Below are positions 37,339-43,508 of a stretch of DNA of 64,000 nucleotides, in pieces; the stretch's first letter is position 1, and every line of letters starts with the position of its first letter. Source of the DNA: Escherichia coli (GTDB lineage: Bacteria; Pseudomonadota; Gammaproteobacteria; Enterobacterales; Enterobacteriaceae). The DNA lies in NCBI RefSeq assembly GCF_044647545.1, contig NZ_CP172818.1, one strand, 5' to 3'. The notes beneath the pieces are model-generated. The model searched no databases. It saw only the letters and a list, made by a program, of their open reading frames with translations, and was not told where the DNA came from. The translations under genes and the position numbers were made by a program.

Positions 37339-38880
<1,542 letters not shown>

Positions 38881-38958: not shown

Positions 38959-39034
38959 GTCCCCTTCGTCTAGAGGCCCAGGACACCGCCCTTTCACGGC
39001 GGTAACAGGGGTTCGAATCCCCTAGGGGACGCCA
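38959..39034 (+). tRNA. gltT: tRNA-Glu (anticodon UUC) in the 16S-23S spacer
   Basis: gtccccttcgtctagaggcccaggacaccgccctttcacggcggtaacaggggttcgaatcccctaggggacgcca, 76 nt. Confidence 0.95.
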
Positions 39035-39229
39035 CTTGCTGGTTTGTGAGTGAAAGTCACCTGCCTTAATATCTCAAAACTCATCTTCGGGTGACGTTTG
39101 AGATATTTGCTCTTTAAAAATCTGGATCAAGCTGAAAATTGAAACACTGAATAGTCGAAAGATTATTCGTGAGTCTCTCAAATTTTCGCAACACGATGAT
39201 GAATCGAAAGAAACATCTTCGGGTTGTGA

Positions 39230-42134
<2,905 letters not shown>

Positions 42135-42225
42135 ACAACGCCGAAGATGTTTTGGCGGATGAGAGAAGATTTTCAGCCTGATACAGATTAAATCAGAACG
42201 CAGAAGCGGTCTGATAAACAGAATT

Positions 42226-42345
42226 TGCCTGGCGGCCTTAGCGCGGTGGTCCCACCTGACCCCATGCCGAACTCAGAAGTGAAACGCCGTAGCGCCGATG
42301 GTAGTGTGGGGTCTCCCCATGCGAGAGTAGGGAACTGCCAGGCAT
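42226..42345 (+). rRNA. rrfB: 5S ribosomal RNA
   Basis: tgcctggcggcc...gagagtagggaactgccaggcat, 120 nt. Confidence 0.95.
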
Positions 42346-42355
42346 CAAATTTAGC

Positions 42356-42395
42356 AGAAGGCCCAGTCGGAAGACTGGGCCTTTTTGCGTTTCTA
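42356..42395 (+). terminator. rRNA operon intrinsic terminator (single hairpin)
   Basis: agaaggcccagtcggaagactgggcctttttgcg: GC stem plus U-run immediately after the 5S gene. Confidence 0.8.
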
Positions 42396-42479
42396 CAAAC
42401 ACTCCCTGTCGTCATAACTACAAGCCATCCCCCCACAGATACGGTAAACTAGCCTCGTTTTTGCATCAGGAAAGCAGCT

Positions 42480-43508
42480 ATGAACCACTCCTTAAAACCC
42501 TGGAACACATTTGGCATTGATCATAATGCTCAGCACATTGTATGTGCCGAAGACGAACAACAACTACTCAATGCCTGGCAGCATGCAACCGCAAAAGGAC
42601 AATCCGTTCTTATTCTGGGTGAAGGAAGTAATGTACTTTTTCTGGAAGACTATCGCGGTACGGTGATCATCAACCGGATCAAAGGTATCGAAATTCATGA
42701 TGAACCTGATGCGTGGTATTTACATGTAGGAGCCGGAGAAAACTGGCATCGCCTGGTAAAATACACTTTGCAGGAAGGTATGCCTGGTCTGGAAAATCTG
42801 GCATTAATTCCTGGTTGTGTCGGCTCATCACCTATCCAGAATATTGGTGCTTATGGCGTAGAATTACAGCGAGTTTGCGCTTATGTTGACTGTGTTGAAC
42901 TGGCGACAGGCAAGCAAGTGCGCTTAACTGCCAAAGAGTGCCGTTTTGGCTATCGCGACAGTGTTTTTAAACATGAATACCAGGACCGCTTCGCCATTGT
43001 AGCCGTAGGTCTGCGTCTGCCAAAAGAGTGGCAACCTGTACTAACGTATGGTGACTTAACTCGTCTGGATCCTACAACCGTAACGCCACAGCAAGTATTT
43101 AATGCGGTGTGTCATATGCGCACCACCAAACTCCCTGATCCAAAAGTGAATGGCAATGCCGGTAGTTTCTTCAAAAACCCTGTTGTATCTGCCGAAACGG
43201 CTAAAGCATTACTGGCACAATTTCCAACAGCACCAAATTATCCCCAGGCGGATGGTTCAGTAAAACTGGCAGCAGGTTGGCTTATCGATCAGTGCCAGCT
43301 AAAAGGGATGCAAATGGGTGGGGCTGCGGTGCACCGTCAACAGGCGTTAGTCCTCATTAATGAAGACAATGCAAAAAGCGAAGATGTGGTGCAACTGGCA
43401 CATCATGTAAGACAAAAAGTGGGTGAAAAATTTAATGTCTGGCTTGAGCCTGAAGTTCGCTTTATTGGTGCATCAGGTGAAGTTAGCGCAGTGGAGACGA
43501 TTTCATGA
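42480..43508 (+). CDS. murB: UDP-N-acetylenolpyruvoylglucosamine reductase
   Basis: 342-aa [24 protein letters not shown]... Confidence 0.95.

Follow-up and report, generated by a model that had tools for sequence, protein, structure and literature searches.

The T1T2 unit of rrnB is a workhorse terminator of cloning vectors. The tRNA-linked repeat (TLR) is reportedly also treated in the work of Rudd in 1999. The intervals that separate T1 from T2 in the rrnA, rrnB and rrnD operons of Escherichia coli K-12 are TLRs, which encode the sRNAs RrA, RrB and RrF (Stenum et al. 2021, PMC8144298). According to this work, the hallmark of a TLR is an 18–19-bp duplication of the upstream RNA gene's 3′ end, the three sRNAs arise by read-through of T1, bind Hfq and CsrA in vitro and have modest phenotypes only, and the RrA/B/F cassette is conserved across Enterobacterales.

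Comparison of the tails of the seven rrn operons of K-12 distinguishes three with this cassette (rrnA, rrnB and rrnD), two that end in one hairpin (rrnG and rrnE) and two that run into tRNAs (rrnC and rrnH). The cassette (about 166 bp) consists of: (i) the T1 hairpin, (ii) a TLR core of about 107 nt corresponding to the RrA/B/F sRNA, and (iii) an 18-bp duplicate of the 3′ end of 5S, so that AACTGCCAGGCATCAAAT is present in two copies in each of rrnA, rrnB and rrnD. From 5S to TTTTTGC, the cassettes of rrnA and rrnB differ by only 1 nt. In K-12 rrnB, 5S is followed by T1, an interval of about 130 nt ending in the second copy of the 5S end, T2 and then the same leader as in the 64-kb stretch of DNA analyzed here (the window).

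The rRNA operon of the window (Table 1) was identified as rrnB because murB lies directly downstream. Its last gene, rrfB, reads tgcctggcgg...ccaggcat, and direct reading places the mature 3′ end of 5S (...gggaactgccaggcat) at 42345; an rrf gene is annotated by RefSeq at the identical locus of E. coli FDAARGOS_497. The spacer between 5S and murB is 134 nt long in the window versus 300 nt in K-12 MG1655, and alignment with K-12 (the window was also aligned with O157:H7 and CMZE063) reveals a gap of 166 nt relative to the T1-interval-T2 arrangement. The rrnB-specific spacer and murB leader are near-invariant in all E. coli alleles and still recognizable in Citrobacter and Kosakonia. A CAAGCC-(N18-19)-GGTAAACT motif (42420–42452) is shared by E. 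coli, Citrobacter and Kosakonia despite divergence of the spacer around it, and is a possible, perhaps likely, murB promoter; a scan of 42100–42700 for sigma-70 promoters returned nothing at threshold. An antisense ORF (42188–42436, 82 aa) that overlaps 5S and has no RefSeq annotation was taken as spurious. Upstream, Rfam also matches StyR-44 at 39112–39222 in the tRNA-23S spacer; this is an unremarkable hit, as enterobacterial rrn operons commonly carry this 23S leader element.

Table 1. Features of the rrnB operon and of its tail in the window
Feature	Coordinates	Strand	Basis or remark
16S rRNA gene	37339–38880	+	Rfam
tRNA gene	38959–39031	+	Rfam
23S rRNA gene	39230–42134	+	Rfam
5S rRNA gene rrfB, last gene of rrnB	42226–42345	+	mature 5S of 120 nt; Rfam RF00001 match 42228–42343, 93.2 bits
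18-bp motif of the 5S 3′ end, AACTGCCAGGCATCAAAT	42333–42350	+	single copy here; the K-12 copies bracket the TLR/rrB cassette
A/U-rich single-stranded 5′ flank, T2-type, caaatttagcagaa	42346–42359	+	alignment with K-12 tails
Terminator stem-loop (predicted), T1-type sequence	42360–42381	+	perfect 9-bp stem: arms ggcccagtc (42360–42368) and gactgggcc (42373–42381), tetraloop ggaa (42369–42372)
U-tract, T2-type 3′ flank, tttttgcgttt	42382–42392	+	identical to the K-12 rrnB T2 3′ flank tttttgcgtttctacaaac
rrnB-specific spacer and murB leader, 87 nt	42393–42479	+	CAAGCC...GGTAAACT motif; AGGAAA ribosome-binding site
murB (UDP-N-acetylenolpyruvoylglucosamine reductase)	42480–43508	+	ATG at 42480; 342-aa ORF; annotated murB at the identical RefSeq locus

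The hairpin that follows 5S combines the characters of both K-12 terminators. Its stem-loop (GGCCCAGTCGGAAGACTGGGCC) is identical to that of K-12 rrnB T1 at 20 of 22 positions and to those of rrnA and rrnD T1 at 21 of 22, whereas it has only the terminal GGCC...GGCC in common with T2. By contrast, its 5′ flank, of the form caaatt(a/t)agcagaa, is identical to that of K-12 T2 at 13 of 14 positions versus 10 of 14 for T1, and its 3′ flank is identical to that of rrnB T2 over 19/19 nt. Furthermore, the downstream spacer is collinear with that of K-12 up to the murB ATG, which places the hairpin where an ortholog of T2 is expected, but GGCCCAGTCGGAAGACTGGGCC stands there instead of the stem-loop of T2. 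The hairpin, which we named S1, is thus a mosaic in which a T1-type stem-loop is set between flanks of T2 type. An earlier sequence-only reading of this DNA had reported a single hairpin after 5S, and the sequence that it quoted is indeed found at 42346–42479 with one hairpin before murB; its description of a T2-like hairpin with a different but base-paired stem holds for the flanks and fails for the stem-loop, which is of T1 type. In some strains with an S1 allele, such as CMZE063 (locus L002, 336–437), the 23S-5S spacer is longer by about 8 nt (match of 809 nt instead of 801), the 5′ flank is hybrid (CAAATTTAGCGAAA) and the U-tract is U4 instead of U5.

Several features suggest that this hairpin works as an intrinsic terminator: (i) a perfect stem of 9 bp with seven G-C pairs and a 4-nt GGAA loop of the GNRA type, within the range of such hairpins (about 5–14 bp with a short loop), (ii) a U run (TTTTTGCGTTT) that begins at the base right after the stem, and (iii) a location on the + strand 14 nt 3′ of 5S, the last gene of rrnB, i.e. 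at the end of a transcription unit. The predicted fold has an energy of −26.8 kcal/mol (z = −6.4); the 200 shuffled sequences used for comparison all fold less well. The stem-loop occurs only once in the window. In the minimum free energy fold, GCAGAA of the 5′ flank pairs with UUUUGC of the U-tract. A simple terminator scan of 42100–42700 did not flag the hairpin, and the control run on K-12 found T1 but missed T2, which has the same flanks. Since the scan also misses a K-12 terminator with the same tail, its negative result for the window hairpin is uninformative; the miss is likely due to pairing of the A-tract with the U-tract, which extends the stem and uses up the T run. Rfam searches of the K-12 and window-type loci at a permissive E-value did not detect any other RNA in the spacer; weak matches to BSnc120 and RAGATH-30 lie far below the gathering scores and were dismissed.

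The segment 42346–42392 is very probably the intrinsic (Rho-independent) terminator of rrnB, in an allele devoid of the TLR and of the sRNA gene rrB. RNA polymerase would transcribe 16S, tRNA-Glu, 23S and 5S, then the 9-bp G+C-rich hairpin with its GGAA tetraloop and UUUUU, and would release the transcript about 40–45 nt past 5S, the U-tract being the expected release point. This hairpin would be the sole terminator of rrnB in this strain, and murB downstream would be expressed from its own signals. Processing of 9S RNA by RNase E is well established. By analogy with K-12, the 5′ flank may include the 3′ site at which RNase E processes the 9S/5S precursor, and the A/U-rich linker between 5S and the hairpin would be the place where the precursor is trimmed. 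In about 47 nt, the natural S1 hairpin associates the stem of T1 with the uninterrupted U-tract of T2, and it might serve as a compact alternative terminator.

What the window lacks is a described gene. A BLAST search of the window with the 107-nt TLR core found only a chance match of 19 nt elsewhere. The window contains no second copy of the last 18–19 bp of the upstream RNA gene, AACTGCCAGGCATCAAAT having one match in the 64 kb even when up to two mismatches are allowed, and it has one hairpin after 5S instead of two terminators about 170 nt apart. No Rfam 15 family covers TLR/RrB. Since the T1-T2 interval is a TLR encoding RrB and is missing here, the window carries an rrB-less allele of rrnB, which would yield no RrB. 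The sequence-only reading, which described for K-12 a T1, about 170 nt, a T2 and a flanking direct repeat, was right on all these points according to the alignment, including the 18-bp AACTGCCAGGCATCAAAT, but it overlooked that the "missing" segment is the sRNA gene rrB, a TLR (PMC8144298).

The prevalence of this allele was estimated in complete genomes of E. coli. Over 801 nt, the window segment shows 100% identity with FDAARGOS_497 and about 96% with K-12-like genomes, which bears out the earlier statement that the window is not K-12 and reflects natural divergence between strains. The segment matches 5394 of 5426 complete E. coli genomes (at least 80% of its length, about 95–100% identity). 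A probe combining the cassette with the rrnB leader detects the dual form at rrnB in 2517 of these 5426 genomes (46%). On the basis of identity bands and of an evenly spaced sample, S1 accounts for roughly 43% of the alleles at rrnB and S2, i.e. 5S followed by an exact T2, for roughly 10%. A direct probe finds S1-type hairpins in about 2900 genomes, some of which carry it at an operon other than rrnB. The rrB-less tail of rrnB is therefore a common natural allele of a known element, carried by about half of the sequenced E. coli, and represents an ordinary variation that would not surprise a specialist.

The number of RrA/B/F copies varies from zero to three among E. coli strains. At the sensitivity of blastn, the TLR core is present at near full length in 3942 genomes and absent from 1484 (27%). 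Copy number was read with a chimeric probe (window murB joined to the TLR core) in 59 evenly sampled genomes, which carry no copy (n = 20), one copy (n = 14), two copies (n = 11) or three copies (n = 14). No copy is found in W4 (100% identical to the window in the murB region), EC958 and ATCC 25922, and O157:H7 has only one, at rrnD. In FDAARGOS_497, rrnA, rrnB and rrnD are all devoid of the cassette: the rrnA tail consists of 5S and the same S1 hairpin as in the window, and at rrnD the T2 of K-12 rrnD directly follows rrfF, leaving a clean empty site. The S1-type hairpin is found at three places in this genome, two of which are rrnB and rrnA. In a literature search on strain-level variation of the rrnB tail, we found nothing beyond the paper on the K-12 sRNAs, and no report of variation from zero to three copies of RrA/B/F.

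The direction of change was addressed by scanning species-representative genomes with the MurB of the window. This gave 80 loci, among which Salmonella, E. fergusonii and Klebsiella are not represented, and 47 of them show a 5S-type 3′ end upstream of murB. In about 43 of these 47 informative species of Enterobacteriaceae and Erwiniaceae, a true 5S end is followed by one hairpin and then by unique sequence before murB. A TLR is present at rrnB-murB only in Citrobacter portucalensis, Kluyvera genomosp. 3 and possibly Phytobacter diazotrophicus, one locus being ambiguous. Because the single hairpin prevails so widely among the outgroups, it is probably the ancestral state at rrnB-murB and the dual form of K-12 the derived one; this polarity relies on draft outgroup assemblies, in which contigs frequently end close to the rRNA repeat. 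The sequence-only reading had assumed a loss from a K-12-like state, which is probably the reverse of what happened. Among Escherichia lineages, the sole hairpin of E. whittamii is T1-like and bordered by T2-like flanks; one of this kind also opens the E. albertii contig, which is cut just before 5S. A lone hairpin of T2-like type is found in Escherichia sp. E1V33 and in the "E69" lineage. T1-like and T2-like stems are thus mixed in this genus, and the ancestral stem may have been of either type. In Escherichia sp. MOD1-EC7003 (locus L017, about 1–330), about 300 bp are inserted between a terminator tail of the rrnA/rrnG type (ATGGCCTTTTTGCATTGG...REP-like) and the murB leader; the insert contains the start of an ORF (MDEKQLQALANELAKNLKTPEDL...) that may be a transposase fragment.

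Gene conversion most likely carried copies of the K-12 cassette from one rrn operon to another. This is suggested by the identity of its core between genera (96%) together with the near-identity of the rrnA and rrnB cassettes of K-12, which ends at the U-tract. Furthermore, the presence of the same mosaic after rrnA in FDAARGOS_497 argues for a concerted evolution of operon tails. Positions 10–11 of 5S (42235–42236 in the window) read GGCCTTAGC in the window and GGCAGTAGC in K-12 rrfB, and EDL933 and CMZE063 have the variant of the window; this micro-heterogeneity follows the tail allele, a pattern that conversion tracts covering both 5S and the terminator would produce. A REP-like sequence (GCCGGATGCGACGCTGGCGCGTC) follows the U-tract in the rrnA tail of FDAARGOS_497 (locus L093, 4803–4850) as well as in rrnA and rrnG of K-12, and is common to rrnA and rrnG. 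Between rrnA and rrnB, the homology of the operon tails stops at TTTTTGC; between rrnA and rrnG, it extends further downstream. More generally, it is conceivable, although doubtful as a whole, that the RrA/B/F cassette is dispensable and mobile from one rrn operon to another, being spread or erased by gene conversion, and that the window hairpin is a scar of this traffic or a template for it. The mechanism of this traffic, by scar or by conversion, is a conjecture.

The origin of the mosaic itself, with the stem of T1 and the flanks of T2, is not explained by any one simple event. S1 could be a recombinant left by the loss of the cassette, its T1-type stem then being what remains of a TLR once present at rrnB and rrnA. 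We regard this as possible but rather unlikely. The loss could have proceeded by a deletion joining the GGCCTTT end of T1 to that of T2, or by conversion of a short patch of T2 by T1 followed by deletion. A T1 stem followed by the 3′ flank of T2 is what a GGCCTTT-mediated deletion would generate. The T1 hairpin is otherwise always located within a cassette, as in Kluyvera, and a T1-like stem as the sole hairpin is found at this locus only in Escherichia and not in about 40 other genera or species. However, a single deletion at this microhomology would keep the 5′ flank of T1 (CAAATAAAACGAAA), whereas the window has a T2-type flank (CAAATTTAGCAGAA), so that a second event is needed; taken alone, this deletion leaves the 5′ flank unexplained, although it accounts for the stem and the 3′ flank, and was retained only as a component of this explanation. 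In addition, the S1-like single hairpins of E. whittamii and E. albertii imply an old state, and no intermediate was observed.

According to the sequence-only reading, the direct repeat flanking T1 would allow exactly the deletion seen here, i.e. the window allele would derive from a K-12-like T1-TLR-T2 ancestor by one recombination between the 18-bp copies of AACTGCCAGGCATCAAAT. K-12 does have these repeats exactly as that reading stated, and the product expected from such an event does occur at rrnB: from the repeat onwards into murB, the S2 allele of WCHEC035123 matches K-12 at 100% identity. The same clean indel separates FDAARGOS_497 from K-12 at rrnD. Nevertheless, the predicted product is 5S followed by an exact T2, not the allele of the window: the event would leave the T2 stem (GGCCATCCTGACGGATGGCC), whereas the window has GGCCCAGTCGGAAGACTGGGCC, 21/22 identical to T1. 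Moreover, the outgroups point to the single hairpin as ancestral at rrnB-murB, and the window haplotype has diverged by about 4% from K-12 in this region, so that it is no recent derivative. For the window allele, this deletion is therefore very improbable. Although the cassette occurs up to three times per genome and adjoins rRNA repeats that are hard to assemble, an assembly collapse of a real T1-TLR-T2 structure can practically be dismissed, since the same short form with its hairpin is present in thousands of independent complete-level RefSeq assemblies, including O157:H7 EDL933, and since the S1 stem-loop sequence is absent from the K-12-type cassette, so that a collapse could not have made it.

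The window is a non-K-12 E. coli, to which the expectation drawn from K-12 for the rrnB tail (T1, rrB, T2) does not apply. It should also be emphasized that RrA/B/F are naturally absent from more than one quarter of the sequenced E. coli (about 27% of the complete genomes, including the lineage of the window), which thus represent natural knockouts. This natural absence fits the weak deletion phenotypes reported in K-12, where no clear phenotype was found (PMC8144298). The polymorphism of zero to three copies of the RrA/B/F sRNA genes is a modestly useful by-product of this analysis.

Overall, the presence or absence of the TLR/rrA/rrB/rrF element is what separates K-12 from the window, which keeps a single 18-bp motif of the 5S end. 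With T1 of K-12 rrnB, and likewise of rrnA and rrnD, the window hairpin shares a near-identical stem-loop, a GNRA tetraloop and a location 14 nt after the 3′ end of 5S. It differs from T1 by a perfect C-G pair in place of U-G, a continuous U5 tract and the rrnB-specific spacer downstream, whereas the flanks of T1 (AAAACGAAA...TTTCGTTTT) give an extended stem of 20 bp and the TLR/rrB core comes next. With K-12 rrnB T2, it shares both flanks and the same position relative to murB, as the last terminator before this gene. However, the stem-loop of T2 (GGCCATCC-TGAC-GGATGGCC, 8 bp, −22.7 kcal/mol in context) is replaced by a longer one (GGCCCAGTC-GGAA-GACTGGGCC, 9 bp, −26.8 kcal/mol), and T2 is preceded by a pseudo-5S end whereas the window hairpin is preceded by the real 5S. 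In its architecture, i.e. 5S, an A/U-rich linker of about 14 nt, a G+C-rich hairpin and a U-tract, the window tail resembles the ends of K-12 rrnG and rrnE and the rrnB-murB loci of other Enterobacteriaceae, from which it differs by the type of its stem: GGCCATCC/GCCCATCC in rrnG and most other genera, and CCCCGGTCC in rrnE.
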